From: Candidatus Heimdallarchaeota archaeon
GTDB lineage: Archaea; Asgardarchaeota; Heimdallarchaeia; JABLTI01
Assembly: GCA_019056785.1 (NCBI GenBank)
Contig: DXJV01000068.1
Span: 117,954 to 141,953, forward strand
Length of the DNA: 24,000 bases
Direction: 5' to 3'
Shown here in pieces: positions 4,665 to 22,493 of this stretch (positions are counted from its first letter, which is position 1; each line of letters opens with the position of its first letter). The position numbers were made by a program, and so were the translations under genes. The notes under the pieces are model-generated. The model saw nothing but the letters and a program-made list of their open reading frames with translations, did no database searches and was not told the DNA's origin.

Positions 4665-5897
4665 TTAATCCTTTAATGCCTCTCGTAGCAGCTTCACTAA
4701 TGAGGCGTCCTTTTTCATTAGCTTCGTGCCAAGTTTAATTTGAGCCCATTTGCCTGTGACTGCTTTTGTGAGATCTTCACCCGAAAATGCTTCGACAATA
4801 TGTTCCATTTGTTCATCGGTTATTACATCTAAGATTTTACGTGCTTTAGAGCCCAGACTGAACGATTTACCGTAGGCATTGTTCCATTGTTTTTCATAAT
4901 GCTTTCGCAGAAACTTTTCGGTGAAGTTTTCTTCTTCAAAGGCTTTTACAAGGGTTTTGCTTACCATCTCGCCTGCTTCCATTCCATAAGCAATGCCTCC
5001 ACCAGTTAAAGGATTGACTTGTCTTGCTGCATCACCAACAAGGAGCACTCTATCTGTTGCCAATCGTTTTAATGACCCCCCTACTGGAATGGCGCCTATC
5101 CGCTCTTCAATTATTTTTGCATGTTTGAATCGCCGCTTTCCCTCTGGGTGTTTGTAAATAAAGTCATCAAGGTACTCTTTGACACTCTTTTTCCCAAATC
5201 CCACACCAACACCTATGCCAACATTTGCAGAATGTTCTCCTTTTGGAAAGACCCAGAGATACCCTCGGGGAGCAACCTCTGTGCCCATATATAGGTCAAA
5301 CATTGTTGGCTCATCAATTTCTACACCAACCATTTCATAGCCAACAGACGTGTCGAGGTCCTTCGGGTCAATCGGCCCCGCAAGACCAGCATCACGAGCA
5401 ACGGTACTATAAATACCGTCCGCCCCAACAACCACTGGCGCTTTTTCAAGTCCTTCTTTTCCTTTTCGTTCGACTTGAAGTGTCACGCCTTCGGAAGGAT
5501 CAATTTTAATGCTCTTTACTCGAGTATTAATTTGGATATCTGCGCCTTCTTGAACAGCGCCGATTAACAATTCTTTGTCAAAAACACGCCGGTCAACAAT
5601 ATACCCTTCTCCTGCACCAAGACGGTATTCAATAGTGTTCAGTGACGGGCTAAATACTCGGAAGCCATCTATTTCGGTCCGAAAAACATATTTTGGTATG
5701 TCGAGTTTTAAAATGTCCTCGATGGTGTCTTTTCCCATTGCTTCGCCACATTGGACAGGAATCCCAACATGGCTTTTTGCTTCAAGGATTTTTACTTTGA
5801 ATCCTTCACGGGCAAGAAACCTAGCGGTAGTGGATCCAGCAGGACCACTTCCAACTACAATAACATCATATTTTTGACTTGGTGTTTGTTCATTCAT
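4665..5897 (-). CDS. Geranylgeranyl reductase family flavoprotein (digeranylgeranylglycerophospholipid reductase-like)
   Basis: FAD-binding motif YDVIVVGSGPAGSTTARFLAREG and the family motif LVGDAARQVNPLTGGGI. The longest ORF begins at TTG 5933. I prefer ATG 5897 (MNEQTPSQKYDVIVVG...) because the GxGxxG motif then sits at the usual distance from the N-terminus. Confidence 0.85.
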   Translation of the reverse strand: MNEQTPSQKYDVIVVGSGPAGSTTARFLAREGFKVKILEAKSHVGIPVQCGEAMGKDTIEDILKLDIPKYVFRTEIDGFRVFSPSLNTIEYRLGAGEGYIVDRRVFDKELLIGAVQEGADIQINTRVKSIKIDPSEGVTLQVERKGKEGLEKAPVVVGADGIYSTVARDAGLAGPIDPKDLDTSVGYEMVGVEIDEPTMFDLYMGTEVAPRGYLWVFPKGEHSANVGIGVGVGFGKKSVKEYLDDFIYKHPEGKRRFKHAKIIEERIGAIPVGGSLKRLATDRVLLVGDAARQVNPLTGGGIAYGMEAGEMVSKTLVKAFEEENFTEKFLRKHYEKQWNNAYGKSFSLGSKARKILDVITDEQMEHIVEAFSGEDLTKAVTGKWAQIKLGTKLMKKDASLVKLLREALKD

Positions 5898-5980
5898 TCT
5901 TCCTGACATCCAATACTCATCAAATACTCGCAATTTTTTAAAACCTTTTTACACTTCTTTACCACAAGGAGAAGGTAAAA

Positions 5981-7429: not shown

Positions 7430-7504
7430 AATCGTTCGACCACCTTTTGCTAATTACTGCTTTCTTTTGTTAAAATCTTTTTGTGTCCTTGCTTTGTACC
7501 TACC

Positions 7505-8155
7505 TTATTCACGACGAAAGCTACAATTAAGAAGGTCGCATGTGTGGCATTCTCGCAAGCCCAGAAGAGGGTCAATTTCAAGGCCAACATTAACAGCAAA
7601 AGAAATACTCTTTTGGGGGATCATTAAGAATGAGGATGTTAAGCGAACATCAATTTTTTCGGCTGGAAGCAAGTTAAAAATGGTTCTCTGCCCTTCTTCT
7701 AAGGGCCAACGGCAATAGCCAGGGCTGAAACGGTGCGTGAACTTTCGTCCGGGAAATTTTGCTCCAATTTCTTTACAGATAATTTGATAACTTTCTTCAG
7801 CAACGGCTTCCGCAGCACACGAAGCAATTGCATCAAGAATAACTGCTTGCGAAAGTTCGCCTTTATTTATGAGTTTATTACTCTCTTCTTCCAATGCTTT
7901 TCCAATAGTGCAAACACATAAAATTGTCCCTTCTGCTTTGGTAAATAGAAACCTTGGCGACAGCTGTTGGCTCGGGAAGAAATCATACAACGCTTTTGGT
8001 TTGATAAATGGTTTGGCAAACTCGAGTAGCTTTTCCACTTCTGTAAGCAAACTTTTTGGCGGTTCTTTCTGTTCCTCTCTTCCCTTTGCGCTGGTAAGAA
8101 GTTGCAGTATTTCCTGAATGGGCAATTGGAAAGGAATGGTTTCAATGATCTTCAC
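7505..8155 (-). CDS. Stand-alone MetH-type reactivation (AdoMet-binding, Met_synt_B12-like) domain protein
   Basis: HRFSPGYCRWPLEEGQRTIFNLLPAEKIDVRLTSSFLMIPQKSISF matches by eye the E. coli MetH activation-domain block [41 protein letters not shown] (RxxPGY AdoMet motif). The GTG start overlaps the upstream stop (GTGA). Confidence 0.7.
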   Translation of the reverse strand: MKIIETIPFQLPIQEILQLLTSAKGREEQKEPPKSLLTEVEKLLEFAKPFIKPKALYDFFPSQQLSPRFLFTKAEGTILCVCTIGKALEEESNKLINKGELSQAVILDAIASCAAEAVAEESYQIICKEIGAKFPGRKFTHRFSPGYCRWPLEEGQRTIFNLLPAEKIDVRLTSSFLMIPQKSISFAVNVGLEIDPLLGLRECHTCDLLNCSFRRE

Positions 8156-9036
8156 TTGTTCTGCTCCTTCAGCCTATCAGCAATATGCTTAATATAGGTG
8201 GGGTTGGTCCCACAACAACCACCAATAATTTGTCCCCCTAAAGAAACTATTTGAATGATGTCTGTAGCAAAGGCTTGGGGGCCAGTCGGGTAAATAGTCT
8301 CTGTGCCAACCAATTGCGGCCTGCCAGCATTCGGCTTAAAAACCAGAGGCTTATCTGTCAATTTGCGCATAATTGGCACTAAATCGATCATTTCATCACT
8401 TCCGATTGTACAATTTGCTCCAAGAACGTCTGCTCCAGCATTAGTCAAAGTACTAACGCATTCTTCTACAGTGTTACCCATAATGGTAAAGAATCCCCTT
8501 TTGGTCTTCTGAAAGGTTATAGACGTAAAAACCGGGACATCTGAAACCTTTTTTACCGCTTTTGTCGCTGCTTCTGCTTCCTTCAAATCGACCATTGTCT
8601 CAATAAAAAAGAAATCCACTCCACAATCTGCAAGAATCTCTGCTTGCTCTAAATAGTTCTCCTCAAAATCCTTTATAGTTGCGCTTCCGACAGGAGGGAG
8701 AAATTTGCCAGAAGGACCAATATCCCCGGCTATAAATCGTCCTTTGGGACAAGCTGCGCGGGCATTTCCTATTGCCTTGCGATTAAATTCTTCAACTTTA
8801 TCAGCAAAACCATGTGCAGCTAATTTCAATCGCGACGCTCCGAATGTGTTGCTCAGTACAGCATCTGCTCCTGCTAAAAAATACTCTTTATGAATTCTTT
8901 GAATGACTGTTGGTTTTGTGGCGTTCCAACTATCTGGGGGAGTGCCCGGGGGCAGCCCTTCGGCAATCAGTAGAGAACCCATGCCGCCGTCGAGGAGCAA
9001 TACCCGTTCCTCTAGTACCTCGAGGATTGATTGCAT
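8152..9036 (-). CDS. Homocysteine-binding S-methyltransferase domain protein (MetH N-terminal module-like, Zn-dependent)
   Basis: The N-terminus LLLDGGMGSLL and the Zn-ligand Cys motifs GANCTIG and IGGCCGTNPTYIKHI are characteristic of the PF02574-type Hcy-binding barrel. Confidence 0.85.
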   Translation of the reverse strand: MQSILEVLEERVLLLDGGMGSLLIAEGLPPGTPPDSWNATKPTVIQRIHKEYFLAGADAVLSNTFGASRLKLAAHGFADKVEEFNRKAIGNARAACPKGRFIAGDIGPSGKFLPPVGSATIKDFEENYLEQAEILADCGVDFFFIETMVDLKEAEAATKAVKKVSDVPVFTSITFQKTKRGFFTIMGNTVEECVSTLTNAGADVLGANCTIGSDEMIDLVPIMRKLTDKPLVFKPNAGRPQLVGTETIYPTGPQAFATDIIQIVSLGGQIIGGCCGTNPTYIKHIADRLKEQNK

Positions 9037-9052
9037 TTCTCACACCCACTCT

Positions 9053-9688
9053 TTAGTTTTTGATTAATTGTTTGGCTAAACGAACTGCTTCAACGGCATT
9101 TTCAGCCGTACCATCGGCACCAATTTCTTCCACCCACTTTTTTGTTACCGGCGCCCCTCCGACAAGAACTTTGAATCTATTGCGAAGTCCTTGCTCAATC
9201 AAGCGGTCTATAAGTTTCTTCTGCCCAACCATTGTCGTTGTGAGCAAAGAAGAAATGCAAATAAGGTCAGCATCAACCTCGAGAGCTTTTGAGATAAACG
9301 TCTCTATAGGGACGTCGTGTCCCAAGTCAAACACTTCGAACCCTTCTGCAGAAAGCATTGCAGCAACCAGTGTTTTACCAATATCATGAATGTCACCAAA
9401 AATTGTCCCGATAACGACTTTGCCAAGCGTTCGCTTTTTCATCTTCGCCCCCAGCTTTGGTTGGAGGATTGCCATTGCAGCCTTCATAGCCTCCGCACTC
9501 CGCATCAACTCTGGAAGGAAAAATTCTCCTTCTTCGAACAAGTCACCGGCTTTACGAATAGCTTCTGAGAACGCATCAACAATTGCAGGTATGTCCATTC
9601 CGGCGGCAATTGCCTCAGATGCGAGTTTTTGTGCAAGAGCCTTGTCACCTGTTAAGATTGCTTTTTGGTAGTCGTTTGAAAAAGGCAC
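9053..9688 (-). CDS. Corrinoid (cobalamin-binding) protein, MtbC/MttC/MtgC-like: B12 cap plus Rossmann domain
   Basis: B12-binding signature DxHxxG (GDIHDIGK), SxL (ISSLLTTT) and GG (VLVGGAPVT). The N-terminal helical cap is NDYQKAILTGDKALAQKLASEAIAAGMD. GTG start with an AGGA-type SD. Confidence 0.9.
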   Translation of the reverse strand: MPFSNDYQKAILTGDKALAQKLASEAIAAGMDIPAIVDAFSEAIRKAGDLFEEGEFFLPELMRSAEAMKAAMAILQPKLGAKMKKRTLGKVVIGTIFGDIHDIGKTLVAAMLSAEGFEVFDLGHDVPIETFISKALEVDADLICISSLLTTTMVGQKKLIDRLIEQGLRNRFKVLVGGAPVTKKWVEEIGADGTAENAVEAVRLAKQLIKN

Positions 9689-9787
9689 TCTTCCTAACCT
9701 ACTTTTGTAAATGTTTACCTTCTACTGTGGGAAAAAAGCTATTTAGACTTTACCTAGAAAGGGGAAGGGAGAAAAAAAAGAAAAAGC

Positions 9788-10549
9788 TTATTCTTTGCTC
9801 TTTTTTTCTGCTTGTTGAAGATATTCGAGAACCATCTGATCGACAGTATTAAAACCTAGCACCACAGCAAGCTCGTCGAGAACTTTATGTGCATGTTCCC
9901 GAATCTGCTCAGAATCATCTTTCTGAGAGATGTCATATAATAAAGGTATGAAACTAACGTCGTCAAGCTTGCCTATTGCTCGAGTGGCGATAAATCGAAG
10001 TTCTTCACTATATTCCGCGCCTGTACATTTACGAAGAAGCTCTTTCGTCTGTCCATCATCGTAGAGGCCAATAATCTCAAGGAGACAACTCTTTAGTTCC
10101 TCGTTCTTTTCAAGGGTAAAAAGTCGTAAGAGCTCGGGAATGATACTTGCATCACGAAGATACATTGTAGTACCCACAAGGACATCTCGAACAGTTTTAT
10201 CCTTTTCTTTGAGGAGGAGGTGGAGAATATCAAGGGCTTTAACCTTATTAGTGAAAAAGCGAAGACCGCCTGCAGCATTGCGCCGTGTCTCAGAATCATC
10301 ATCGTTCTTAAGAACTTCAAGGAGCACTTCTAATACCTCGTCCCCACCAAGTAAAGAGAGGGAGAGAACGATTGCTCGACGAACTTCGTGGATTTGTTCT
10401 GCTTGCAACAATTTAATCAAAGGTTTTGTTGCGCGTGGGTCCATGGATCGGCCAAGCATCTCAGCTGCATTGCGTCGAACAGCCGGGTCCTTGTCTTTTA
10501 ATAATTGGATGTTGCGTTCAATAGCATTTTTCCCAGTCAACAAAATCAC
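9788..10549 (-). CDS. HEAT-repeat (PBS-lyase-like) protein
   Basis: Repeated DPAVRRNAAEMLG / EVRRAIVLSLSLLG / SETRRNAAGGL / ELRFIATRAIGKL helical-repeat units. GTG start. Confidence 0.7.
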   Translation of the reverse strand: MILLTGKNAIERNIQLLKDKDPAVRRNAAEMLGRSMDPRATKPLIKLLQAEQIHEVRRAIVLSLSLLGGDEVLEVLLEVLKNDDDSETRRNAAGGLRFFTNKVKALDILHLLLKEKDKTVRDVLVGTTMYLRDASIIPELLRLFTLEKNEELKSCLLEIIGLYDDGQTKELLRKCTGAEYSEELRFIATRAIGKLDDVSFIPLLYDISQKDDSEQIREHAHKVLDELAVVLGFNTVDQMVLEYLQQAEKKSKE

Positions 10550-10916: not shown

Positions 10917-11780
10917 ATGCGAATTGGTTTTGGCTTGGAACCGATCAAAGGCCTTTCGATAGACTTGATCATTTATTTATTGCGGAAAATTCTCCTCGAG
11001 CATTTTGAATTTAATTGGCGTATCATCCCAAAAGTCGACCTTGTATTGAAAAGCTTGGGAAGCGCCACCACTACTTTTCATCTCCCCATTTACAACCGTG
11101 ATGGGTTTGATTTTTCATCAATAAATACGCGTTACGAGATTCAAATATCTGAAGTTATTTCTTTCGTTAATCAACGGAAAGATGATTTGAACATGATATT
11201 TGTTCTTGCTCATGCTCCAGAAGATCCAAATCATTCTTATAAGCTTATGTTTCAGCGTCTGGCACAAATTAACGCTCCAATCGTCCTCGAAAATGTTGCC
11301 GGACAATCTGAAGAATACTTCTTGGACTTCTATCGTCAAGCAAAAGACTTTCTGGGGGCTCATCTTGCTGGTTTTGCTCTTGACATCTCTCATCGGTTTG
11401 TTACTGACCCTGAGAATTGGTTGAATATCCCGGAAGAATTAAAGGAAGATATCGCTTATGTCCACATTTCTGATTGTACAAAAACAGAAGACCTCCATTT
11501 GCCTTTAGGGTTTGGGGAGCTGCCTTACAATGAATTTTTCGCTTTCCTAAAAGAGATTGGCTATAATGGGGTGATTAATCAAGAACTAAAACCAAATGGC
11601 GATCAAGCTGAAGCAATTATGTCCTCGAGTCAGTTATGTATTAAACCTTTTTCCAAGACGAAATATCTGCGCATGAAATTCAGGGGCGCTATAATGCGTC
11701 TAATTTTAAAACGTCGCCGAAAGGATTTTACGGAAGTTATTGGCCGCACTGCTGATGAAATTGGTTATGATTTTGTATAG
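10917..11780 (+). CDS. Xylose-isomerase-like / AP-endonuclease-family-2 TIM-barrel protein (paralog 1)
   Basis: The spacing of metal-ligand-type residues fits the fold: TTFHLP, LAHAPE, VLEN, LDISHRF, YVHISD, DLHLPLGFGELPY, INQE. It is clearly homologous along its whole length to the ORF at 19743-20579. Confidence 0.7.
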   Translation: MRIGFGLEPIKGLSIDLIIYLLRKILLEHFEFNWRIIPKVDLVLKSLGSATTTFHLPIYNRDGFDFSSINTRYEIQISEVISFVNQRKDDLNMIFVLAHAPEDPNHSYKLMFQRLAQINAPIVLENVAGQSEEYFLDFYRQAKDFLGAHLAGFALDISHRFVTDPENWLNIPEELKEDIAYVHISDCTKTEDLHLPLGFGELPYNEFFAFLKEIGYNGVINQELKPNGDQAEAIMSSSQLCIKPFSKTKYLRMKFRGAIMRLILKRRRKDFTEVIGRTADEIGYDFV

Positions 11781-11805
11781 AGGATAGGAGCATCACCAGA
11801 AAATT

Positions 11806-13140
11806 TCAGACTTCAAATGCTCTGTGAATCCGAATGAGTTTTCCAGAAAAACGGTTTTTTATCGGCGCTTCAAATCGCACTTCAACCCGAGGTGTTCGGC
11901 ATTTATAACTGTTAAAAACTCGTGCAATGTTTTTTTGGAGTGTTTCAGCTAATTCCTCATTCTTCATCTCTTTCCTCTGGAGGAGAACCCTTACAACCAC
12001 TTTAGTCGGGCTTTTTTGAACAGCTTGATATTCTTCAATGTGTTCTGAACTTATGATTATTGCTCGTCGAATATAGTCAGGAAAGATATACTGTAATTCA
12101 TTAGTGTCTTTTCTCTCGCCCCAGAACATGTCGTCCGCTCGCCCCATGATGTGTTCTATCACTCGAAATGATGAGCCACAAGAGCATTTTTCAAGAGAAA
12201 GGGTGATAATATCATTCAACTCGAATCGTACAATTGGTTGTGAGGTTTTGTGCAAGTCAGTGACAACAGATTGAAAACAGGGTGTGCCTGCAGGTGTTTC
12301 TGTTCCATCCTTATTAAGGAGTTGTAATTTCACCAAGTCTTCATTGATATGTAACGAGCCTGCCTTACAAGTAAGTCCTAATGCCCCTTCACTTGCCTGG
12401 TAAATTTGATGTATTGGTGTACGAAATATCTCTTCCAGTTCCGTCTTGATCTCCGGCTCAAGAACTTCGGCATAGGAAACAACACGTTTCGGTTGAATGG
12501 ACAGTCTTTCCTCTTGAATTTCTCTTGCAAGGATTTTCAACATAGAGGGAGGAGCAGATAAGATATTTGGTTGAAAAGACTCAAGCCGCCGGCGAAGAAC
12601 CTCTAATGGAAGCTTTAGGCTGAAATGAGTCAGCTGTTGCCCGAACTTTTTTACTTGAAAGGCCGGGGTGGTGATTCTGAGGAGAAATGCCCAACGCATT
12701 CGAAGAACCCGTGGAAAGCTAAAGCGTGCAAAAAATGCTGCTTGGAGGTATTTTTCCTCGGCAGGACTTGTAATAACTATTCCCCGATTGCCGCTCGTGC
12801 CGGAAGAGAGGGCAACATTAAAACCCTTTAATCGTTCACCATAGCGCTCCTCCTTTTCAACGCGAGTGGTAAATGCCAGGAGCTCTTCTTTTGTTAATCC
12901 AACAGTATTGTAGGTGGTCAAATTCTCCATCATGACCTTTTTATTAACAGTTGGCAGAGCCCAGACAGCAGAAAGATCCACCCTTCGATAAAGTTCTCTG
13001 AAAAAAACTGATTTAGAAACAATGAACTTTACAACCCTCTGTGCTTCCTTTAATTGATAGCCTGCGATCTTCTCGGGAGAAAATCTCTTGAAACGTCTTT
13101 TACAGCCAATGAAAAAGCGGAGAAAAGAATTCGTTTCCAT
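11806..13140 (-). CDS. PaaK / coenzyme F390 synthetase-like adenylate-forming enzyme
   Basis: ANL-superfamily motifs are present: SSGTSGNRG (P-loop-like, compare SSGTTGKP), YQASEG (compare YGxTE) and MGRADDMF (compare GRxDDM of PaaK). 444 aa with an ATG start. Confidence 0.75.
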   Translation of the reverse strand: METNSFLRFFIGCKRRFKRFSPEKIAGYQLKEAQRVVKFIVSKSVFFRELYRRVDLSAVWALPTVNKKVMMENLTTYNTVGLTKEELLAFTTRVEKEERYGERLKGFNVALSSGTSGNRGIVITSPAEEKYLQAAFFARFSFPRVLRMRWAFLLRITTPAFQVKKFGQQLTHFSLKLPLEVLRRRLESFQPNILSAPPSMLKILAREIQEERLSIQPKRVVSYAEVLEPEIKTELEEIFRTPIHQIYQASEGALGLTCKAGSLHINEDLVKLQLLNKDGTETPAGTPCFQSVVTDLHKTSQPIVRFELNDIITLSLEKCSCGSSFRVIEHIMGRADDMFWGERKDTNELQYIFPDYIRRAIIISSEHIEEYQAVQKSPTKVVVRVLLQRKEMKNEELAETLQKNIARVFNSYKCRTPRVEVRFEAPIKNRFSGKLIRIHRAFEV

Positions 13141-13470
13141 TTTTAAACACTCGTAAGTTACTTTGTCCTTTACTGCTAATCTTCGCTTTTACTGTTAATA
13201 AATACTTTATCCCTCCCAAAATTTGTACTACTGGAAAGCGATTGCATTGTTAGAAACGTGAAACGGCCAACAATTTTGTTTAGTGCATCTTTCCCATACC
13301 TTTATATAGCCATTGCACGTTTCACCAATTGTATACATTTGATGAATTATGATATGGGAATGAAGTCTTTTTTTGATGAGCCTTAACAAAGGCACTCTTG
13401 AAAAGAGCAATCTTTGGGCCTATTTTCTTTGTTCTTCTTGTATAACACAAATATTTGGTGAAAATATAAA

Positions 13471-13629
13471 ATGAGTAGATATGGTAACTACAGCAGACCA
13501 CCCCGAGAAATGTATAAAGTAACTTGCGCTGATTGTGGTATTGAAACAGAAGTTCCTTTCAAGCCTGATGGTGAACGACCTGTTTACTGCCAAGAATGTT
13601 ACAGAAAACGAAAACCAAGAAGATATTAG
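13471..13629 (+). CDS. 52-aa zinc-ribbon protein with a CxxC-x17-CxxC domain, absent from the ORF track
   Basis: Hand translation: MSRYGNYSRPPREMYKVTCADCGIETEVPFKPDGERPVYCQECYRKRKPRRY. There are exactly 17 residues between the two CxxC pairs. ATG start with GGTGA 11 nt upstream; basic tail. Confidence 0.7.
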   Translation: MSRYGNYSRPPREMYKVTCADCGIETEVPFKPDGERPVYCQECYRKRKPRRY

Positions 13630-13919
13630 GTAAACGCCTAAAATTTATCTAGTATTTTTTCATTCCTAGTGAAAATCATAACTTCATCTCGAATGTTGGT
13701 TTTCACTTCTTTTTTAATTTTAGATTTTTCTCATTTTTTCAATAGAGCTGACCTTTTGCTAGCCTTCAGTGAATCTTCCTTTAAAACCGACATTTTACTT
13801 GGCCATTGCTGATGATCCTAAAAAAGAAATAGTGAAAGGAGGAGTGTGATATTCTTACAGGGACTCCTCAATTGTTTTTGCCCTCTCAAAGCAAAATTCC
13901 TACCACAATCAATCCGTAA

Positions 13920-14057
13920 CTATTGACCATCATCGCCAATAGGCCCTGGTTCAACAGTTGGGTCTCCTCGTACTTCCTGGATGGCTGCTGTTCCTCCGAT
14001 TAGGAGTCCTAGCAACAATACTGCTAGACTAATAACTTTTGGGTTGATTTTCTTCAT
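13920..14057 (-). CDS. Putative 45-aa secreted or membrane-anchored micro-protein
   Basis: Hand translation: MKKINPKVISLAVLLLGLLIGGTAAIQEVRGDPTVEPGPIGDDGQ. It has a signal-peptide-like n/h region followed by an acidic, Pro/Gly-rich tail. ATG start with GGTGA 10 nt upstream, the same SD type as neighbouring genes. Confidence 0.4.
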   Translation of the reverse strand: MKKINPKVISLAVLLLGLLIGGTAAIQEVRGDPTVEPGPIGDDGQ

Positions 14058-14185
14058 TTTTGTTTATCACCTTGCTACAGTTTTTTACATCACTTTTGTC
14101 GATGAATACCTCGATTATGGGTAGTTGCGACTACATAATTTATAGTCTCTTATTCCAAAATAATCTTTAGCTACTCCCATGGTGG

Positions 14186-14247
14186 CAATCTAATCGAAAA
14201 AAATCTTTGTTAAACGCTTTTAAAGTCAAAAAATCGCCATTAGATTG
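14186..14247. repeat. Inverted repeat CAATCTAAT ... ATTAGATTG (9 bp arms, 44-nt A/T-rich spacer) in the leader of the 597-aa gene
   Basis: Read directly: 14186-14194 is CAATCTAAT and 14239-14247 is ATTAGATTG, its exact reverse complement. The adjacent CG/CG can extend the pairing with a 2-nt bulge. Confidence 0.5.
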
Positions 14248-14383
14248 GGGTGCCCTTTTTTCTCGATTTTTGAGTTAGGAATTAGGAAAAAACATTAGAT
14301 ATTTATTTAAGTAAAGAGATTTTAATTAGCAAAAAAGAACAAATAAAAGACTGTCTCTCTATATATTATAAAGTGGGAACTCG

Positions 14384-16177
14384 ATGAAACATATTGATAT
14401 CCAGAAATTAGCAGAAGATTTAGCTGTCCTTGAGACATTGGCTATAAAAGAGGTTGATCAAAGAGTTTCCATATTAAATGATTTACAAACAGTTTTTCAG
14501 AACAAGCTTAAAGCTTATACAAAAAAGAAGCCACATTGGCCGCAACGAAGAATTGTCTTAGGGCAAGTTGAAGATAATATGGGAGTGCATTATGCGATTA
14601 AGAGAACCTCGACCAAAACCATTCTTGCAACATGGATCTTTAATTTGCAACCTAAAACACGTTTCTACTTGCTTTCTTTCTTCACAGCAAAAGAGGCCTT
14701 GCTCCCTTTTTTCGCTCAAATTCCAACTGAAGAAGAAGAGGCGATAATTAACATACTTGCGATTCTTCTTCTTAGAGAGATCTATCAAATTCAATCTTTA
14801 GAAAATCCTTTACTTTCAGCCATCCGCTCGAAAATTTATTCTGAATTAATAGCTAATATCAGTTATCTATTATGGGACAATATGCTGGTCATGCTGATTA
14901 CAAAAAAAGTCCCTTTAATTGACGCCTTTTTAGAATTTGACAAACTTCTCAATTCAAAAGAGCAATTACTTCAAAGGAAGCGCTCATTCACTTCTAAGTT
15001 TATGGAATGGGTTAATGAACGAACTATTACAGAACTAGATGCTATTCTCCCCCTTTTTATTCATTATAAATTGATTGAGCTGATAGAGAACTTTTTAGAG
15101 CTCGGGTATGAGCTTAGCTCGACTTCTTTTATTGCTCGTAAATTGAAACTCTCTCAGAAGACCGTTACTAACCGGTTCAAAGCATTAAATGAAAGCTATT
15201 CCACCTTTTGGCTCACAGAAATTAATTTTGAGGAAATGAACTTACATAATTATTTTATCAAGATAACTCTCGCAAAAGAGAAATATCTCAAACCTTTGGC
15301 TACAAAACTGCTCGAAAATCCTTATATACAAAACATCTACACCGGCTTTGATTCAAATAGCGCTATAATCTATTCGCCCCGATTTATTTGCCCGCATATT
15401 GTCTCTGAACGGTTGCATGAACATTTGCGAAAAATAGCTCGTGAGGGGATTGTCTCTGATTTTTCTGTGAGTTTAATTCGAGAGAAATATCGTTATTTTA
15501 CTTTAAGTGAGCGTCCTATCACCTTGAAAAAGATCGCGCCCTTTGAACAAATGGTAAAAACTTTGGAACCTTCTTTAAGAAAGTATCTCTTTTCTCACAT
15601 TAAACGGAGTTCGACTATCCCTGAAAAAGACAAACCAGTCAATTTTGATTATAATCTTCTTTCCTTTCTTTCCATTATCAAAGGGAAATACCTTTTGCGA
15701 GCTCGCTATGCTGTTTGGATTAATGAATTCAAAGACTTTTATCTCCGGAACAAAATCTCTCCTACCAATGTCAAAGAGCAGATTAATTTACTCTATTACT
15801 ATGAATTGCAGGCCAAAAAGAAAAAACTCATTAATTTTTCTCTCTACATTCGCTCGCTGATGAAACGAGCACCAAATGTCTTAATTATAGAGCTACCAAC
15901 CTCTGATTTATCTAATGAAGAACTAAATGCCGTTATTGACAAGCTGCGTATTCTTTCTTTTTTGGGGCAAGTTGATTTATATGACCGGCATCTCTTTCAA
16001 ATTCTCGGTATTTCCCATAGCCATCCTCTTGCAAAGAGCATTGAGCAATTCCTTGTCGATGAAGGGCTTTCACCAAGTCTTTATACCATTAAATTACAGA
16101 AAACAAAGTTTTTGCCATTTCATGAGCTCTATGATTATGAAGAACAGAAATGGAAAATTGAAGGGATTTCTTTCTAA
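14384..16177 (+). CDS. Uncharacterised 597-aa protein with at least one Lrp/AsnC-like HTH plus small alpha/beta (RAM-like) module
   Basis: A long ORF in the most AT-rich part of the window. The segment ELSSTSFIARKLKLSQKTVTNRFKALNES is followed by LHNYFIKITLAKEKYLKPLATKLLENPYIQNIYTGFDSNSAIIYS, which looks like HTH_AsnC plus an effector-type domain. No enzymatic motif (P-loop, nuclease, etc.) was recognised. A TATA-like CTATATATTATAAAG lies 11-25 nt upstream of the ATG, so the mRNA may be leaderless. Confidence 0.6.
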   Translation: MKHIDIQKLAEDLAVLETLAIKEVDQRVSILNDLQTVFQNKLKAYTKKKPHWPQRRIVLGQVEDNMGVHYAIKRTSTKTILATWIFNLQPKTRFYLLSFFTAKEALLPFFAQIPTEEEEAIINILAILLLREIYQIQSLENPLLSAIRSKIYSELIANISYLLWDNMLVMLITKKVPLIDAFLEFDKLLNSKEQLLQRKRSFTSKFMEWVNERTITELDAILPLFIHYKLIELIENFLELGYELSSTSFIARKLKLSQKTVTNRFKALNESYSTFWLTEINFEEMNLHNYFIKITLAKEKYLKPLATKLLENPYIQNIYTGFDSNSAIIYSPRFICPHIVSERLHEHLRKIAREGIVSDFSVSLIREKYRYFTLSERPITLKKIAPFEQMVKTLEPSLRKYLFSHIKRSSTIPEKDKPVNFDYNLLSFLSIIKGKYLLRARYAVWINEFKDFYLRNKISPTNVKEQINLLYYYELQAKKKKLINFSLYIRSLMKRAPNVLIIELPTSDLSNEELNAVIDKLRILSFLGQVDLYDRHLFQILGISHSHPLAKSIEQFLVDEGLSPSLYTIKLQKTKFLPFHELYDYEEQKWKIEGISF

Positions 16178-16402: not shown

Positions 16403-17107
16403 ATGGCTTCAAGAATCTTTGCTGGTTTGGTATTTCTAGCTTTGCTTTCTTATCTCTATGGTTCTCTTTGTTGGGCTATTATTATTAGCAAATGGAAACT
16501 TAGGAAAGACATTCGGGTGCTCGGCGATGGTAATCCTGGGGCGTATAATACCGGTAGAAATTTAGGTGGTAAATATTTTCTTCTTGTTATGCTTCTCGAT
16601 GCCTCTAAGGGATTCATTCCGGGGTTAATTGCTTCTTTCGTTAATTTTCAGGCTTATCAAAATTGGGCAGTAGGTTTAGCAGGGTCCTTCTCTGTTTTGG
16701 GGCATTGCTATCCCATCTTTTTCAAGTTTCGAGGTGGTAATGGTTTTTCGACTATTTTTGGTTTCATGATTCTTTACAATCCTTGGATGGTCCTTGAGTG
16801 GGGTATTTTTGTTTTCGTATTGACAGTTATTTTCAAGTACATCCGCCCCGTCCAACTCATCACTATGTTCTTTATTTCCTTTTTCGCCATCTTCATCGAT
16901 TGGCATTTTTATTGGAGGAACTTTTTCCCCTTGTTGACAGAGCCTATGATGCAAGTAACTCTCCCTGCTATGGTGCTAACGATTGCTTTATTGCAAGTGC
17001 CAAGATTTATCCCATACTTTGTTGGCATCTACACTGGAACAGAAGAAAAGATCTTTTTCTTTAAATTCCTGCGGAAGAATAAAACAACTTCTTCCGATAA
17101 TAATTAA
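16403..17107 (+). CDS. plsY: PlsY-family (COG0344) acyl-phosphate:glycerol-3-phosphate acyltransferase homolog, polytopic membrane protein
   Basis: All three PlsY motif blocks align by eye to B. subtilis PlsY. [20 protein letters not shown] aligns with [30 protein letters not shown] aligns with [28 protein letters not shown] aligns with LGHVFPIFAKFKGGKAVAT. Several hydrophobic helices are present. Confidence 0.8.
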   Translation: [234 protein letters not shown]

Positions 17108-17125
17108 ATTACTCGAGTGAATGTC

Positions 17126-18166
17126 ATGTCTTACAAAACTAAACGCCCTCTTTCCGAAAAGACTGTTCAAAAACTCCTCTTGCAACATTTCCCGCATCAA
17201 AGTGTTGAGGGCTTACAAGAAGTGCCAAAATCGTTCGTGAATAAAGTCTATTCATTTCGCGTTTCTAGTAGCGAAGAATATATCCTTAAAATTAATAACC
17301 CCCATTGGCCAGAAAAACAGAGAAGAGAAGCACTGGCACTTACGCTAGTAAAAGAACAGACATCGATCCCAGTTCCGACAATCTATGCACAATCACCTCC
17401 TAAAAGCCCGATAAGTTATTTAATTCTGGAAAAAGTTCCAGGCGTTGAGCTAAAAGATGCACTTCAGGAGGGGCTCCTTGAACAAACAACTGCTCTCAAA
17501 CTCTTCACGGAAGTTGGCCGGTATTTAGGCGAACTCCAAAAGATCTCCTTTGATTTTTTTGGCGACTTTAGTGTTGACTCTCTGTCTCCTTCGTCTTCAA
17601 ATTTCTTGTGGGGGCGAACGTTCGCGACCTTCAAAGAGTGCCTTCAAGCTTTTGCTTTTGAGGTTCTTAATTGGGTTGATACAAACACTTTTTCAGCCGT
17701 TCGGAAAAAACTTCATAAAGTGATTCCAACGTACCTCGAACAAATTCATGATTCATCGCCCTCTTGTTTGGTTCATTCTGACATTCAAGCCTCAAATATT
17801 TTAATACAGGATGGCACCATTTCCGCTCTCCTTGATTTTGAATGGGCTTTTGCAGGCACCTCGAGTTTCGATCTTACACTTGCTAAAGCAGGTTTTTATT
17901 TCAGTACCTTCCCGTCCCTTGCACCAAATTCCCCCCCACTCGCTCTTACTGAGGACAATTATTTTAAGGAAATCTCTCGTGCCCTCGATGCTGGCTTTCA
18001 GTCTTCCTCTTCCCAACCAGTTATTCCTTATCCTGAGGATTTTCCGGCATTTGTTTGGCTTCTCTATCTCATAGGCTCTTGGCGATGGACCACTCGTTTA
18101 CTTTCTTTTGCAGAACGGCGCCGTCTTAAACGTAAAATTCTCTCTCTTTCTGCTCAGTTTTTCTGA
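17126..18166 (+). CDS. APH / choline-kinase-fold small-molecule kinase (phosphotransferase enzyme family)
   Basis: Brenner-type catalytic motif LVHSDIQASNILI and the DFE metal-binding motif (ALLDFEWAFAG). The N-lobe pattern is FVNKVYSFRV...EYILKIN. The ORF track starts at GTG 17117; ATG 17126 has a GAGTGA SD-like motif upstream. It begins only 9-18 nt after the plsY stop. Confidence 0.75.
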   Translation: MSYKTKRPLSEKTVQKLLLQHFPHQSVEGLQEVPKSFVNKVYSFRVSSSEEYILKINNPHWPEKQRREALALTLVKEQTSIPVPTIYAQSPPKSPISYLILEKVPGVELKDALQEGLLEQTTALKLFTEVGRYLGELQKISFDFFGDFSVDSLSPSSSNFLWGRTFATFKECLQAFAFEVLNWVDTNTFSAVRKKLHKVIPTYLEQIHDSSPSCLVHSDIQASNILIQDGTISALLDFEWAFAGTSSFDLTLAKAGFYFSTFPSLAPNSPPLALTEDNYFKEISRALDAGFQSSSSQPVIPYPEDFPAFVWLLYLIGSWRWTTRLLSFAERRRLKRKILSLSAQFF

Positions 18167-18260
18167 TTTTTAATCTTATAATTACCTTTAAATGCAATTA
18201 TTATTGATGGGTAATATAGGTGGTCAATAAAACTCCCTATAAAAAAGGAGAAACGAAAAA

Positions 18261-19529
18261 ATGACTTTGGAAAGAAAGTTACAGAGCATCCTAATTATTC
18301 TAATAATTGTGAGTTTACCGGTCTATGGAACGATAAGCTTGCCAAGTATACAGACGGGGAGAGCCGCCAAGCCAAGAATGCGTACTTTTATCTTCAATCC
18401 AAATGCTGCCGATGAGCTCGTTATTTATACCCATGATAGTTTTATGGCCTGGGGAAAGCCGGAGGATTATCAAATCGTTATGAATCAGACGTTCTATAAT
18501 TTCGGCGTGTTACATAATGTTACCGTTACTGTTAATGTTTTTAGTGGCATGGTGGAGGCATTAAATTTACTTATCAGCCAAAAAGAGCATCCTCAAGCGG
18601 ATCTCGTTATCGGGTTAGATAATACAATGGTCTCCCGAGCGAAAGAAGAGCAGATTCTCCTCCCACTTTTAACGGGTGTTAATCTCGAGAATGTTTCAGC
18701 AGACTTGATTGCTGCGCTCGACCCTGAAAAATACCTGGTACCTATTGATTATGGCTTAATTGCAGTGATTTTTGATACGGCCTACATTAATGTTAGCACT
18801 AACCCGGAACTATTAACAATGGATTTCGATACTTTATTGGACACTTTCGGGAAGACACTTGTCGTTCAAGATCCAACTCAAAGCGCAACAGGTTTGAACT
18901 TTTTACTTTATCAGATTGTTCTCTACGAGAAAGTTTTAGGTCAGGAGTGGCAACAATGGTGGAAGAAGGCAAAAGGGCAAGTGACCATCGATAAGAGTTG
19001 GTCGGACTCTTGGGAACGAGTTTTTTCCAAGAAAGAAGCTCACATGATGGTAAGCTACGGCACTGACCCAGCATACAATGCCTATTTTGGTTATAGTTAT
19101 GAGCACAATGCTGCTATTATTCACCATAACGGAACAAAATATGGTTGGCTACAAATCGAAGGTATAGGTGTCGTGAATGGGACAACCAAAGCCAACCTGG
19201 CAAAAGAATACATTAATTATGCTTTAAGCAGTGAAGTGCAAGATTATGTTGCCACCAACAACTGGATGTTTCCGGCAAATAATCAAACGACTCTGGACCC
19301 AAGTTACGACTACGCCATCACCACTGAGAATGTAACTATTTTAAATAATCTTATACAGCCTAACTATATCGGGGACAATTATCAAGATTGGCTTAACACT
19401 TGGGAACGGCTTGTTTATGGCTCTGGTACTTGGTGGATTTGGGCATTGATTTCGGCTATAGCTCTCTTAATCGCCGGAATTGTCACCTATTTCGTTTTTA
19501 AATCAAAAACAAGAATTGATGTAGAGTGA
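18261..19529 (+). CDS. TbpA/ThiB-like thiamine-binding periplasmic-type solute-binding protein with N-terminal signal/anchor and C-terminal TM anchor
   Basis: Block-wise similarity to E. coli TbpA recalled from memory. VIYTHDSF matches VYTYDSF; ADLVIGLDN matches ADVVLGLDN; VPIDYGLIAVIFD matches VPFDYGYFAFVYD. QDPTQSATGLNFLLYQ matches QDPRTSTPGLGLLLWM; MVSYGTDPAY matches VLSYTTSPAY; NNWMFPANN matches GNWMYPVAN. Eight N-x-S/T sequons. The C-terminal helix is WWIWALISAIALLIAGIVTYFVF. AGGAG SD. Confidence 0.8.
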   Translation: MTLERKLQSILIILIIVSLPVYGTISLPSIQTGRAAKPRMRTFIFNPNAADELVIYTHDSFMAWGKPEDYQIVMNQTFYNFGVLHNVTVTVNVFSGMVEALNLLISQKEHPQADLVIGLDNTMVSRAKEEQILLPLLTGVNLENVSADLIAALDPEKYLVPIDYGLIAVIFDTAYINVSTNPELLTMDFDTLLDTFGKTLVVQDPTQSATGLNFLLYQIVLYEKVLGQEWQQWWKKAKGQVTIDKSWSDSWERVFSKKEAHMMVSYGTDPAYNAYFGYSYEHNAAIIHHNGTKYGWLQIEGIGVVNGTTKANLAKEYINYALSSEVQDYVATNNWMFPANNQTTLDPSYDYAITTENVTILNNLIQPNYIGDNYQDWLNTWERLVYGSGTWWIWALISAIALLIAGIVTYFVFKSKTRIDVE

Positions 19530-19570
19530 AAGTTAGTCTTTTGTCTTTCACTCCAACTTTTTTCTTTTAG
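19525..19570 (+). terminator. Hairpin plus T-tract at the end of the solute-binding-protein gene
   Basis: AGTGAAAG (19525-19532) pairs with CTTTCACT (19545-19552) around a 12-nt loop, followed by CCAACTTTTTTCTTTT. The hairpin spans the stop codon. Confidence 0.4.
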
Positions 19571-19742
19571 TTTTGTCCTTCAGCATTAAAATGGGCTTTT
19601 GTAAGTACTTTGTTATTAAGGAGTCATTGAAGTACCACTCTGGTTCGTCATTTCATAAAAACAAATAGAAATGCTATGTTGGCTTTCTTTCATTGCAAAA
19701 AATACGAGTCCTTTGTCGTAGCTTTCTCTATGCAAAGGAAAG

Positions 19743-20579
19743 TTATTTTTGTGTTGTGTGGGCGATTTTTCGCCGTAAAATTGGTTTTACAAAGGCATAT
19801 CTTGTTTTCATTGCAAGAAATCGCCCTTTATTTGTATATTTTGCCACTTCAAGGCAGGAGTTCATAATCGCTACCAAATCCAATCCTTCTGGTTTGATCT
19901 CCTGATTAATCACCCCTTTATAGCCCAAGCGTTTTAAGAAGCGTAAAAAGTCCCAATAGGGCATTTCTCCTTGCCCCAACAGCAGGTGAGTGTCATTATC
20001 CTTTTTTGTATCTTGTAAATGAACATAAACAATTTCTTTTGCCAGTTCTGTTGGAACCGAAAGCCAATTGTCGTTGTCAGTCAAAAAGCGATGTGGACCA
20101 TCAATAGCGTGCCCTGCGAGTTGCTTGCCAAGAAGATCCTTCGCTTTAAAATAAAAAGCAGTAAAAGTCTCGTCATCTTGCCAAGGAATATTTTCTAAAA
20201 TTATTGGTGTTTGAATTTGTTGTAATGTCTCAATAAGCACTTGGAAGTCAGCATCCGGCCCCTCAGGGGGATGAGCTAACGTAAAAAGTAATTGGAGGTC
20301 CTTGTGATAAGTGTTAATAAAATCAACTACTTTTGTCATGCGTGTTCGCAAAGCAGCTTTTGTCGAACCCGGCTCAAAGCCATCAACACTTGGGATCGGC
20401 AAATGAAATGTTGTTGTTAATTTACCCAGATTCGCAATAATTCCCTCGACATCCTTCATACTATTAATATTGATCTCAACATGATCCAAAGCAATTGCTT
20501 TTGCAAAAGTAACCAACTTGTCAGCAGAAATACCGGCATACGGTTCAATTGTCACACCAATTTTCAATGAGTTCACCAC
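19743..20579 (-). CDS. Xylose-isomerase-like / AP-endonuclease-family-2 TIM-barrel protein (paralog 2)
   Basis: Collinear with 10917-11780. TTTFHLPIPSVDGF matches TTTFHLPIYNRDGF; TLAHPPEGP matches VLAHAPEDP; PIILEN matches PIVLEN; HRFLTDNDNWLSVP matches HRFVTDPENWLNIP. YVHLQD matches YVHISD, and GYKGVINQEIKP matches GYNGVINQELKP. The longest ORF starts at GTG 20579; TTG at 20567 (MKIGVTIEP) would mirror paralog 1 (MRIGFGLEP). Confidence 0.7.
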   Translation of the reverse strand: MVNSLKIGVTIEPYAGISADKLVTFAKAIALDHVEININSMKDVEGIIANLGKLTTTFHLPIPSVDGFEPGSTKAALRTRMTKVVDFINTYHKDLQLLFTLAHPPEGPDADFQVLIETLQQIQTPIILENIPWQDDETFTAFYFKAKDLLGKQLAGHAIDGPHRFLTDNDNWLSVPTELAKEIVYVHLQDTKKDNDTHLLLGQGEMPYWDFLRFLKRLGYKGVINQEIKPEGLDLVAIMNSCLEVAKYTNKGRFLAMKTRYAFVKPILRRKIAHTTQK

Positions 20580-20652
20580 AGCTAAAGCTAGCTATTAAGT
20601 ATCTTTAAAAGAAAAAAAGGTTTCTAAAAGAATCCTCTCTTTCAGAAAGTGC

Positions 20653-21312
20653 TTAATCAAGATCAATTTTAATGTACTTTGTTAGTGCTTTTCGGATTTC
20701 CTGGCAGCGAGAGTCTTGAGAGGCAAATTGATTAGACACAAAACCCAGAACCATGCCCATTTTATCATCGGGAATGTTGCCTTTTAATTTTTCAGCCGCA
20801 TGTACGGTATATTTGTGCTGGCGGACAGTTAACTCATCTATGAGCTTCTGGGCTTCTTCTTTCTCTTCCTCGGATAGCCCCAGGAGAAAAGCGTCATCTA
20901 TCAAAGCAATCAAAGGATTCTCGCGAATGCCTTCTTTTTTTTCAATCTCATCAATAGTTGTAGCCAGTACAAAGGCCGGTGCCGTGCGTTCATAATAGGT
21001 TATTGACGTTCGTTTCTTTTTCTCTTCACGAGCAACACGCACAAACCCGTGCTCTACTAAAAGATCTAAATGATGATAACATTTCGGCGCAGAGACGCCT
21101 AATTTTCTCGCGATTTCAGGAACAGTCATTTCTTTCCGGATGGTGCCATCCTCGTTTTCGATTCCCTCACGCATCGTTCGTAAAATCTTGCGACGCATCG
21201 GGTCGACTAAAATTTTGATTTTCTCTGGACTACCAATAATCTTTACCCTACTACCTGCCCCTTTATTATTCCGCTTTTCTTCATCGCTTAATTCTTTAGG
21301 CTCTGGGGTCAT
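20653..21312 (-). CDS. ArsR-family winged-HTH transcriptional regulator with an extra C-terminal domain
   Basis: The HTH_20-like core is ILVDPMRRKILRTMREG...MTVPEIARKLGVSAPKCYHHLDLLVEHGFVRVAREEKKKRTSITYYERT. ATG start. It lies 73 nt upstream of TIM-barrel paralog 2 on the same strand. Confidence 0.75.
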   Translation of the reverse strand: MTPEPKELSDEEKRNNKGAGSRVKIIGSPEKIKILVDPMRRKILRTMREGIENEDGTIRKEMTVPEIARKLGVSAPKCYHHLDLLVEHGFVRVAREEKKKRTSITYYERTAPAFVLATTIDEIEKKEGIRENPLIALIDDAFLLGLSEEEKEEAQKLIDELTVRQHKYTVHAAEKLKGNIPDDKMGMVLGFVSNQFASQDSRCQEIRKALTKYIKIDLD

Positions 21313-21488: not shown

Positions 21489-22493
21489 TTAGCTATTTCT
21501 CTGCTGTAAATAGGAAATAATCGCTGTCAATTTTTCATCAGGAACGTTTAGGGGGATCACACAACCAGGGCCAATAATGATCGGCCGGCCATTAACAGAA
21601 GAAATCGTTTTCTCAAGCCGTTCCAAAACATTATCAATAGTTGCTTTGGGGAGAAATTCCTGTTCTTCAATGCCCCCGACAATAATGCCGGAAAAGAGTT
21701 TTTGAGCTTCAGCAATGGGTGGTGGCGTCAGCTGGTCATGCCAGTTTAATGCTTGGACAGGATAGTGCTTGGCAATTAGTTGAAACATAATATTATTGCC
21801 ATGAATGTGTGCGACATTAAAGGTTGCTTTGTTTTTAATTGCCTTTAAAATTTCGAGGTCAAAAGTCATGCCAAATTCTCGAAATTCTTCTTCCGTTAGA
21901 AAGTCAAAGGTTGCTTCCTGGGTTGCCAGGAAAATACCTGAGGCACCATTTTCGAGCGAAATCTTGGCAAACTCTTTCATGACTTTGGTAATAATTTTCA
22001 ACCCTTCCTTGAAGGTTCCGGGTTCTTCTCTTATGGCTTTTAAAACAAGTTCACGATTCTCCGTGAGTTTTGCTGCAACCATCAAGGGATTAAAAACAGT
22101 TTCAATGAAAGGTGTTTTTCTTTTCATCCCCTGATCAATGATGGTAAGTGCTTTGAGTTGCTCGCCAAACATCCCCTGATTTACGTCCAGCTCCTCGAGA
22201 GCAGCCCAATCCTCAATAGCAGCCACACGGTACTTTGTACAATAGGCTGAGCCGGTTAATTTTTGATCATCAAATGCAATCTCACACCCCCAATCAATAA
22301 CACAATAGCGACCATTGGGGCTCACTTTCATAAAGATCGAGTCAAACTTTTGAAGATACTCGAGTTGTTTCTGAGCCAGCCTTTCAGCTGAAAGGTCATC
22401 ACGAGGAAAATGACGCCAAAAAGCAAAGGGAATGGGTTCGACTTGCTCCCCTTTTAAAAGCGCCCGTAGGATTTCAATCTTTTCTTTCGACAC
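21489..22493 (-). CDS. Uroporphyrinogen-decarboxylase (URO-D) family protein, MtaA/MtbA/CmuA-like methylcobamide methyltransferase candidate
   Basis: 334 aa. The N-terminal pattern EILRALLKGEQVEPIPFAFWRHFP and the overall length fit URO-D-fold MT2-type proteins. GTG start with a GGCGTGAT SD-like motif. The call comes from recalled family features and is not verified. Confidence 0.6.
   Translation of the reverse strand: MSKEKIEILRALLKGEQVEPIPFAFWRHFPRDDLSAERLAQKQLEYLQKFDSIFMKVSPNGRYCVIDWGCEIAFDDQKLTGSAYCTKYRVAAIEDWAALEELDVNQGMFGEQLKALTIIDQGMKRKTPFIETVFNPLMVAAKLTENRELVLKAIREEPGTFKEGLKIITKVMKEFAKISLENGASGIFLATQEATFDFLTEEEFREFGMTFDLEILKAIKNKATFNVAHIHGNNIMFQLIAKHYPVQALNWHDQLTPPPIAEAQKLFSGIIVGGIEEQEFLPKATIDNVLERLEKTISSVNGRPIIIGPGCVIPLNVPDEKLTAIISYLQQRNS

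Follow-up and report, generated by a model that had tools for sequence, protein, structure and literature searches.

PlsY is a membrane acyltransferase that uses acyl-phosphate to acylate glycerol 3-phosphate (G3P). In Aquifex PlsY, Ser35, Arg45, Lys104, and Asn180 form the clamp that holds the phosphate of G3P, and Ser142 and His177 are ligands of its 2-OH (PMC5700162). The acyl-phosphate is held in a "phosphate hole" composed of His92 and the backbone of residues 104-107, Thr41 contacts the acyl carbonyl through a hydrogen bond, and Asn37 stabilizes the oxyanion (PMC5700162). The S35C, S35T, and K104R mutants retain 4%, 17%, and 25% activity, respectively, and N180D loses more than 95% (PMC5700162). 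His177 was irreplaceable by any substitution tried; H177A retains 6.5% activity (PMC5700162). Here, we describe a diverged PlsY-like protein encoded at positions 16403-17107 of a 24,000-nucleotide stretch of DNA (the window) from a Candidatus Heimdallarchaeota archaeon (contig DXJV01000068.1), and the kinase gene that directly follows it.

PF02660 (PlsY-family) homologs have been known from Asgard bins (Loki, Thor, and Heimdall groups) since 2017-2019 and are treated as putative bacterial-type lipid genes, as far as the available text of these sources goes (Villanueva 2017; Coleman 2019, PMC6431249; Manoharan 2019, PMC6737245; EMBO Rep 2026, PMC13400652). In the part of the 2026 paper at hand, it is argued that PlsY also accepts glycerol 1-phosphate (G1P) (PMC13400652). 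Asgard "plsY" genes have repeatedly been cited as a hint of a capacity for bacterial-type ester-lipid synthesis in the archaeal ancestors of eukaryotes.

The original prediction for this locus, made from the sequence of the window, was that of a PlsY homolog with divergent catalytic motifs and a coupled kinase that might supply its substrate or modify its product. We hold, with moderate confidence, the joint claim that the protein is a neofunctionalized, acyl-phosphate-dependent transferase with an acceptor other than G3P and that the kinase is not functionally linked to it.

A PlsY-family protein in a Heimdall-group genome

The source genome (G000) is 2.87 Mb in 102 contigs and is 82.5% complete. 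Together with its relatives G001-G011 it makes up family f1 (12 genomes); f2, f3, and f4 are other families of the same class. All of the genomes compared are metagenome bins, 64-92% complete, and the absences reported below mean that a gene was not found in the genomes searched. Two features of the window are needed first:

16403-17107, + strand: PlsY-family membrane protein of 234 aa (PF02660, TIGR00023, predicted fold)
4665-5933, - strand: geranylgeranyl reductase, in the same window

The 234-aa protein matches PF02660 with 121.2 bits (gathering score of 24.1) and Aquifex aeolicus PlsY (5XJ5) with an E-value of 9e-22 in HMMER, but it misses the cutoff of the TIGR00023 PlsY equivalog (107.7 vs 137.2 bits). 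An AlphaFold2 model built from 33 sequences has a pLDDT of 88.1 and a pTM of 0.82. In a PDB search with this model, the top five matches were all A. aeolicus PlsY (E 7e-9, TM 0.70/0.83), and none of the non-PlsY structures was significant (all E >2). The product of 16403-17107 is predicted, on this model, to have the PlsY membrane fold.

The genes of the window are archaeal and include the PriS/PriL primase, an XPD-type helicase, SepF, the archaeal PheRS beta subunit, and the geranylgeranyl reductase, which the original prediction had also recognized. Database homologs of the PlsY-like and kinase genes carry Heimdallarchaeota or Asgard group labels. The predicted presence of a PlsY-family membrane protein in an archaeal, Asgard/Heimdall-group genome is therefore upheld by the family match and fold.

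Donor and acceptor sides of the active site

Residues were mapped by sequence alignment, and HMMER and MAFFT agree. The MAFFT alignment comprises 22 orthologs, the G000 paralogs, and 128 diverse PlsY-family representatives. The four motifs that had been quoted for the two proteins (GDGNPGAYN and GGNG in the PlsY-like protein; HSDIQASN and DFE in the kinase) were all located exactly as given. The active-site features of the PlsY-like protein, all identified by alignment, are:

16523-16549, + strand: motif 1, GDGNPGAYN, with Asp42 for Ser35 and Tyr48 for Thr41; Asn44 (oxyanion) and Asn49 are retained
16703-16705, + strand: His101, the equivalent of the acyl-phosphate ligand His92, retained
16727-16744, + strand: phosphate-hole loop, FRGGNG, with its Gly residues retained and Asn113 for Lys104
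17006-17044, + strand: motif 3 region, with Phe202 for His177, Tyr205 for Asn180, and Gly208 for a conserved Arg; the structural Glu214 is retained

The donor side is kept throughout the orthogroup: His101, F109-x-G111-G112-x-G114, Asn44, Asn49, Asp66, and Lys69 are all retained, as is Glu214. His101, Gly111-Gly112-x-Gly114, and Asn44 are invariant across the 22 orthologs, and His101 is also His in all 128 other representatives.

The acceptor side is replaced. Five of the six G3P side-chain ligands are substituted throughout the orthogroup, and the sixth, Arg45, is relaxed. The position of Ser35 is Asp42 in 22/22 orthologs (Ser in 114/128 representatives), that of Lys104 is Asn113 in 22/22 (Lys in 114/128), that of Ser142 is Gln151 in 22/22 (Ser in 92/128), and that of His177 is Phe202 in 22/22 (His in 111/128). 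At the position of Asn180 (residue 205), 19 orthologs have Tyr, 2 have His, and 1 has Phe, with Asn in 107/128 representatives. The Arg45 position (residue 52) is Arg in 10 orthologs, Lys in 10, and Gln in 2 (Arg in 119/128). Thr41, on the acyl carbonyl, is also changed: residue 48 is Tyr in 13 orthologs, Phe in 7, and His in 2, while Thr is found in 95/128 representatives. Because the canonical residues dominate the 128 representatives and the alternatives are fixed in the orthologs, these substitutions are not common variants of functional PlsY, a point on which the original prediction had been prepared to fall. As judged from the alignment, the replacement residues of the acceptor pocket are themselves constrained.

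The motif assignments of the original prediction need some correction. It considered all three motif blocks alignable, and the motifs can indeed be located. The true motif 3 (His177...Asn180) is altered to Phe202...Tyr205, so that not all three blocks are conserved. The GGKG loop that had been called motif 3 is motif 2 as the structure paper numbers the motifs; its substitution to GGNG is real. The proposal that the substrate may be non-canonical emerges stronger, given the extent of the change among the G3P ligands.

With the residues that hold G3P changed, the protein is probably not a glycerol-phosphate acyltransferase. Lys104 is lost and an Asp is gained at position 35, making the pocket two charge units more negative, and the acceptor would for this reason probably be neutral or cationic.

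The protein could still be an ordinary PlsY that acylates G3P (or G1P) with acyl-phosphate despite its substitutions, leading to bacterial-type ester lipids. The clear PF02660 match, the PlsY fold, and the intact donor-site residues are what would be expected of such an enzyme, and bacterial PlsY tolerates both glycerol-phosphate stereoisomers, according to the available part of the source (PMC13400652). The state of the acceptor pocket argues the other way, as do the severity of the clamp mutants in Aquifex PlsY and the score below the TIGR00023 cutoff. Two further points, a separate near-canonical PlsY in the genus and the lack of PlsC, are taken up with the acyl-phosphate genes below; with these included, we consider an ordinary PlsY very unlikely.

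Expansion of the PlsY family

Among 1.84e9 cluster representatives, 11,508 match the PlsY family. Only one 50%-identity cluster is near the query (290 bits), and the next best scores 99.8 bits. When a tree of the family is labeled with eight-residue signatures, the canonical S35-N37-T41-R45-K104-S142-H177-N180 (S-N-T-R-K-S-H-N) dominates, and the query orthogroup forms a separate long-branch clade with the signature D-N-[YFH]-[RKQ]-N-Q-F-[YHF].

The G000 genome encodes eight PF02660 genes, and the canonical signature is found in none of them (0/8). The five sister genomes that were surveyed in full have 6-13 copies each. Copy numbers are lower in the other families: 1-3 in f2, 1-2 in f4, and 0 in f3 (22 genomes). 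Within the genus, the G3P pocket is kept only in the PlsY copy that is linked to FakA/FakB. In the literature searched, we found no account of a multi-paralog PlsY radiation in Heimdall-group genomes in which most copies lack the G3P ligands.

A common partner was sought for the other seven G000 paralogs. DegV aside, their neighbors are heterogeneous (TPR, peptidase S9, FTR, GatE-like, SDR, and others), and no such partner was accepted. A 444-aa unannotated open reading frame (ORF) near the PlsY-like gene proved to be unrelated to the 444-aa ORF beside paralog C4.

Eight PlsY-family proteins are longer than usual (304-604 aa). Seven of these are composed of PF02660 and an extension without a Pfam match, and one has a DnaJ domain; a fusion to a kinase or to DegV was sought in the eight, and none was found. 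Six proteins of 555-604 aa (P0064, P0075, P0119, P0128, P0135, and P0136) have a canonical N-terminal PlsY domain followed by a C-terminal extension of ~370-400 aa with no Pfam match.

Supply of acyl-phosphate and other lipid genes

PlsX and FakA/Dak2 were not found in the window or in the 82.5% complete G000 genome. PlsC was not found in G000, nor was a credible GpsA, for which there is a sub-threshold 22-bit match. There are two Fe-ADH_2 (G1PDH superfamily) matches in G000, at 33 bits each. The original prediction had noted that neither plsX nor fakAB lies in the window. For plsX and fakA, this extends to the genome. Outside what the window could show, approximately 10 DegV/FakB genes are found in G000 (contigs C75, C95, C47, C99, C92, C65, C74, C93, and C80). 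Two of them, on contigs C92 and C93, directly adjoin PlsY paralogs.

The number of DegV copies per genome is 5-23 in f1 (up to about 24 in sister genomes), 3-15 in f2, 2-3 in f4, and 0-2 in f3, and broadly tracks the PlsY family across the class. In five well-assembled, related sister genomes, a DegV gene lies within 600 nt of 12/43 PlsY-family loci, against ~0.5 expected by chance. These adjacencies comprise at least four distinct arrangements.

In one arrangement, found in sister genomes (L029:1160-5560 = G010:C6; L030, L031, and L032), the gene order is FakA-like, DegV, PlsY, and a GT87-like membrane protein. The FakA-like protein is 330 aa long, with Dak2 and FakA-like_M domains but without the C-terminal domain of bacterial FakA, and matches TIGR03599 with 343 bits over the first 299 of 530 positions. 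The PlsY of this operon (L029:2778-3515) belongs to the best-scoring group in the sister genomes. Its signature is near-canonical (S-N-S-R-K-N-H-N), and it exceeds the TIGR00023 cutoff (154.6 vs 137.2 bits). A FakA-like gene is present in 8/10 other genomes of the genus. In these genomes, the genes that recur beside PlsY-family members encode DegV/FakB and a FakA-like Dak2 kinase, not an aminoglycoside phosphotransferase (APH)-fold kinase. The FakA-like/DegV/PlsY operon probably supplies the acyl-phosphate donor. No description of an archaeal FakA-DegV-PlsY operon was found in the literature searched.

A second DegV-PlsY pair, L033:550-4413 (G010:C1) and L034 (G008:C103), has the signature S-S-R-R-K-S-Y-E. 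Its PlsY is the ortholog of G000 C42 (74% identity). Genes for a DUF2229 (CoA-enzyme-activase-type) protein and for a small protein with a PLAT/LH2 domain, a lipid-associated type of domain that occurs mainly in eukaryotes, flank the pair. At G005:C52:56289-57853, a PlsY paralog and its adjoining DegV gene both have in-frame stop codons; this pair appears to be decaying together.

Neither a PcrB-type GGGPS (PF01884) nor a PlsC-type acyltransferase (PF01553) was found in the 12 f1 genomes. CarS is present in 11/12, and matches to bacterial CdsA in f1 were rejected as cross-hits on the CarS gene. The f3 and f4 families have both GGGPS and PlsC. When the genomes searched for both PlsY and PlsC are considered, the PlsY-rich f1 and f2 lack PlsC, f3 has PlsC without PlsY, and f4 has both. 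It is possible that f1 has a divergent GGGPS for the first ether bond. For an ordinary PlsY at 16403-17107, the missing PlsC in 12/12 f1 genomes and the presence of a separate near-canonical PlsY in the genus are both unfavorable.

The kinase and its gene block

Downstream of the PlsY-like gene are the following:

17117-18166, + strand: APH-fold small-molecule kinase (PF01636), 349 aa from the GTG start or 346 aa from the ATG at 17126
18261-19529, + strand: solute-binding protein of the thiamine-type (sfuA/TbpA) subfamily (TIGR01254, 161.6 bits vs 93.4)
19743-20579, - strand: xylose-isomerase-like TIM-barrel protein (PF01261, synteny)
20653-21312, - strand: ArsR/TrmB-type helix-turn-helix (HTH) regulator (synteny)

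The gap that had been predicted between the PlsY-like stop and the kinase start is confirmed at 9 nt (GTG) or 18 nt (ATG). The ATG at 17126 is the probable start, as it gives the same length (346 aa) as a database protein with 95% identity. The kinase matches PF01636 with 70.8 bits (gathering score of 23.2), and its HSDxQxxN (HSDIQASN, 17774-17797) and DFE (17834-17842) motifs are intact. All 19 orthologs compared share His220, Asp222, Asn227, Asp240, and Glu242; at position 58, 16 of them have Lys and 3 have Arg. No equivalog model was passed (best, 32 bits), and the score against the thiamine kinase ThiK model TIGR02721 (14.6 bits) is far below its cutoff of 299. Thiamine as the substrate is a suggestion that comes from the neighboring TIGR01254 binding protein. 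The kinase clade is narrow and is found almost only in bins labeled Heimdall or Asgard. Identity to non-identical orthologs is 36-45%. The kinase evolves much faster (38-45% identity) than its block neighbors (56-83%).

The block of kinase, solute-binding protein, TIM-barrel, and HTH genes (window positions 17126-21312) is found across f1. The kinase ortholog is present in 12/12 f1 genomes, always with the same TIM-barrel and HTH-regulator genes, and the binding protein is missing only in G011. The PlsY-like ortholog is present in 8/12. The two genes are neighbors in 8/8 of the genomes having both, and also on other metagenomic contigs; in several relatives an isochorismatase gene sits between them. 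In G001, G008, and G010, which lack the PlsY-like ortholog, the genes after the kinase are nonetheless the usual ones (binding protein, TIM-barrel, HTH, URO-D-like, and small ORF). G011, which also lacks it, keeps the block minus the binding protein. Directly upstream of the PlsY-less kinase is a major facilitator superfamily (MFS) transporter (G001 and G008) or a 3-beta-HSD-like reductase (G011). On a more distant contig, the order is MFS, Fer4, Fer4, 3-beta-HSD, kinase, and solute-binding protein, with 154 nt at the expected position of the PlsY-like gene. Conversely, L014 carries a PlsY-like ortholog (58% identity, same signature) among unrelated genes, without the kinase.

These arrangements bear on a possible functional pairing of the PlsY-like protein with the kinase, in which the kinase would make a phosphorylated substrate or phosphorylate the product. 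The shared strand, the short gap in G000, and the adjacency wherever the two co-occur are consistent with a pair. Against it, the kinase is found without the PlsY-like ortholog in G001, G008, G010, G011, and L036, the PlsY-like ortholog is found without the kinase in L014, and the intervening isochorismatase gene separates them in several relatives. APH-fold kinases phosphorylate hydroxyl groups, not carboxylates, and would therefore not make acyl-phosphate. The lost phosphate clamp also argues against a phosphorylated acceptor, and the eight longer PlsY-family proteins contain no kinase domain. The linkage therefore breaks in both directions. The kinase would belong functionally with the downstream genes and not with the PlsY-like gene, and we think a functional pair unlikely. 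The coupling put forward in the original prediction is not supported by this distribution, in which each gene occurs without the other; the adjacency itself is seen in all 8 f1 genomes having both genes, but not beyond a single sub-lineage.

No ABC permease or ATPase gene was found near the binding protein, and this, together with the loss of the acceptor ligands and Thr41 and the room for functional drift in a multi-copy family, would suit a protein that is not an enzyme: a lipid- or ligand-binding membrane protein, a pseudoenzyme, or the membrane partner of the permease-less binding protein two genes downstream. The strict conservation of His101, Asn44, Asn49, Asp66, Lys69, and the GGxG loop, with fixed replacements, instead indicates a defined active site. 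Moreover, the binding protein and kinase persist without the PlsY-like gene, and the ancestral cluster contains an MFS transporter. A role as transporter partner was rejected, as the block persists without the PlsY-like gene and structural matches to transporters, including the ThiT/ECF S-component fold, are insignificant (E >2). Overall, a non-enzymatic role seems improbable.

The upstream stretch and other genes of the window

Two genes lie upstream of the PlsY-like gene in G000:

11806-13140, - strand: F390-synthetase-related adenylate-forming enzyme (TIGR02304, 302 bits vs 251.9; matches to PaaK structures)
14384-16177, + strand: ORF of 597 aa with no detectable family, directly upstream of the PlsY-like gene, G+C of 0.34

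In the relatives, HSP20, MFS, two Fer4, and 3-beta-HSD/OleD-like reductase genes are found upstream of the PlsY-like ortholog. These are missing from G000, which has the F390-synthetase-related gene and the 597-aa ORF instead, in a low-G+C stretch; a tblastn search of G000 for the 3-beta-HSD, MFS, and Fer4 orthologs found none. One of two TIM-barrel paralogs is inverted at 10917-11780. The organization of window positions 10917-16177 points to a local rearrangement or insertion.

Elsewhere in the window, 5981-10549 and 21489-22493 encode an MttB-superfamily methyltransferase, a B12-binding corrinoid protein, a homocysteine S-methyltransferase-like protein, a methionine-synthase activation-domain protein, and an MtaA/URO-D-like methyltransferase. 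Judging from this set of genes, the genome may encode a corrinoid-dependent methyl-transfer system.

A proposed function for the PlsY-like protein

The gene at 16403-17107 would be a neofunctionalized paralog from an expansion of the PlsY family that is specific to its lineage, a Heimdall-group Asgard genus. From the residues it retains, its product is a candidate membrane acyltransferase that still uses acyl-phosphate. The acyl-phosphate would come from the FakA-like/FakB (DegV) system that is encoded in the genus and in which FakB is heavily expanded, and the acyl group would be passed to an acceptor other than glycerol phosphate, presumably of the neutral or cationic kind that the pocket favors. 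The APH-fold protein is predicted to be an active small-molecule kinase that works alongside the products of the downstream binding-protein (thiamine-type), TIM-barrel, and regulator genes. It would adjoin the PlsY-like gene because this order of genes was inherited within one sub-lineage, and not because the two enzymes share a pathway.

Several observations weigh against this proposal. The donor is assigned from the retained residues, and the change of Thr41 to Tyr, Phe, or His means that the donor may also differ. In the genomes examined, the PlsY-like ortholog is never next to a DegV gene. FakA is not detected in G000 itself, where a tblastn search for six genes of the FakA-DegV-PlsY block recovered no trace of any; the block is therefore either unassembled or lost there. 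Within the cluster running from the MFS transporter to the solute-binding protein, the PlsY-like ortholog is on the same strand as, and just upstream of, the kinase in 8/8 genus genomes. With the 9-18 nt gap in G000, this placement makes co-transcription, and some functional link, possible. In addition, the relatives compared are not independent samples.

A broader proposal, which we offer tentatively and regard as unlikely, is that the PlsY family of the Heimdall group radiated with FakB/DegV into acyl-phosphate-dependent membrane acyltransferases of varied acceptors, and that the D-N-[YFH]-x-N-Q-F-Y clade acylates a non-phosphorylated acceptor. If this is true, the acceptor of that clade could be, for example, an ether-lipid intermediate or a neutral or cationic head group that is acylated at an amine or hydroxyl. 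The resulting lipids would be neither classical bacterial nor archaeal, in lineages with CarS, without PlsC, and without a detectable PcrB-type GGGPS.

A PF02660 match is by itself insufficient to support the inference of ester lipids, and when genomes are surveyed for the lipid divide, the G3P ligands should be scored in addition to family membership. The PlsY-like gene is an orphan paralog; it gives a clean contrast with the near-canonical copy and sharpens the reading of "archaeal PlsY". The tempting PlsY-kinase pathway is removed as unsupported. New acyl-phosphate-dependent chemistry may be found among the diverged paralogs, which can be cloned.

Comparison with known systems

The 234-aa protein shares with PlsY (PF02660 and TIGR00023; Aquifex structures 5XJ5-5XJ9) its Pfam family and multi-helix membrane fold. 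It differs in being under the equivalog cutoff and in being one of eight paralogs in a genome without detected PlsX or PlsC. At the level of residues, the counterparts of Aquifex His92, the GGxG phosphate hole, Asn37, Asn42, Asp59, Lys62, and the structural Glu of motif 3 are retained. In contrast, the clamp of Ser35/Arg45/Lys104/Asn180 reads Asp, Arg/Lys/Gln, Asn, and Tyr, Ser142 is replaced by Gln, His177 by Phe, and Thr41 by Tyr, Phe, or His.

The archaeal FakA-like/DegV/PlsY operon is close in protein family and genus, but 16403-17107 is another paralog, one that is never DegV-linked and whose acceptor pocket is replaced. The kinase has the HxDxxxxN loop and metal-binding Asp of the APH/choline-kinase-fold kinases (PF01636; hygromycin-B kinase 3TYK and ThiK). 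Unlike these, it passes no specific equivalog and belongs to a narrow, fast-evolving Heimdall-group clade. Finally, in the lipid-divide literature, within the text available, PlsY is scored as present or absent, whereas the genomes described here have many paralogs, most of them without the G3P ligands.

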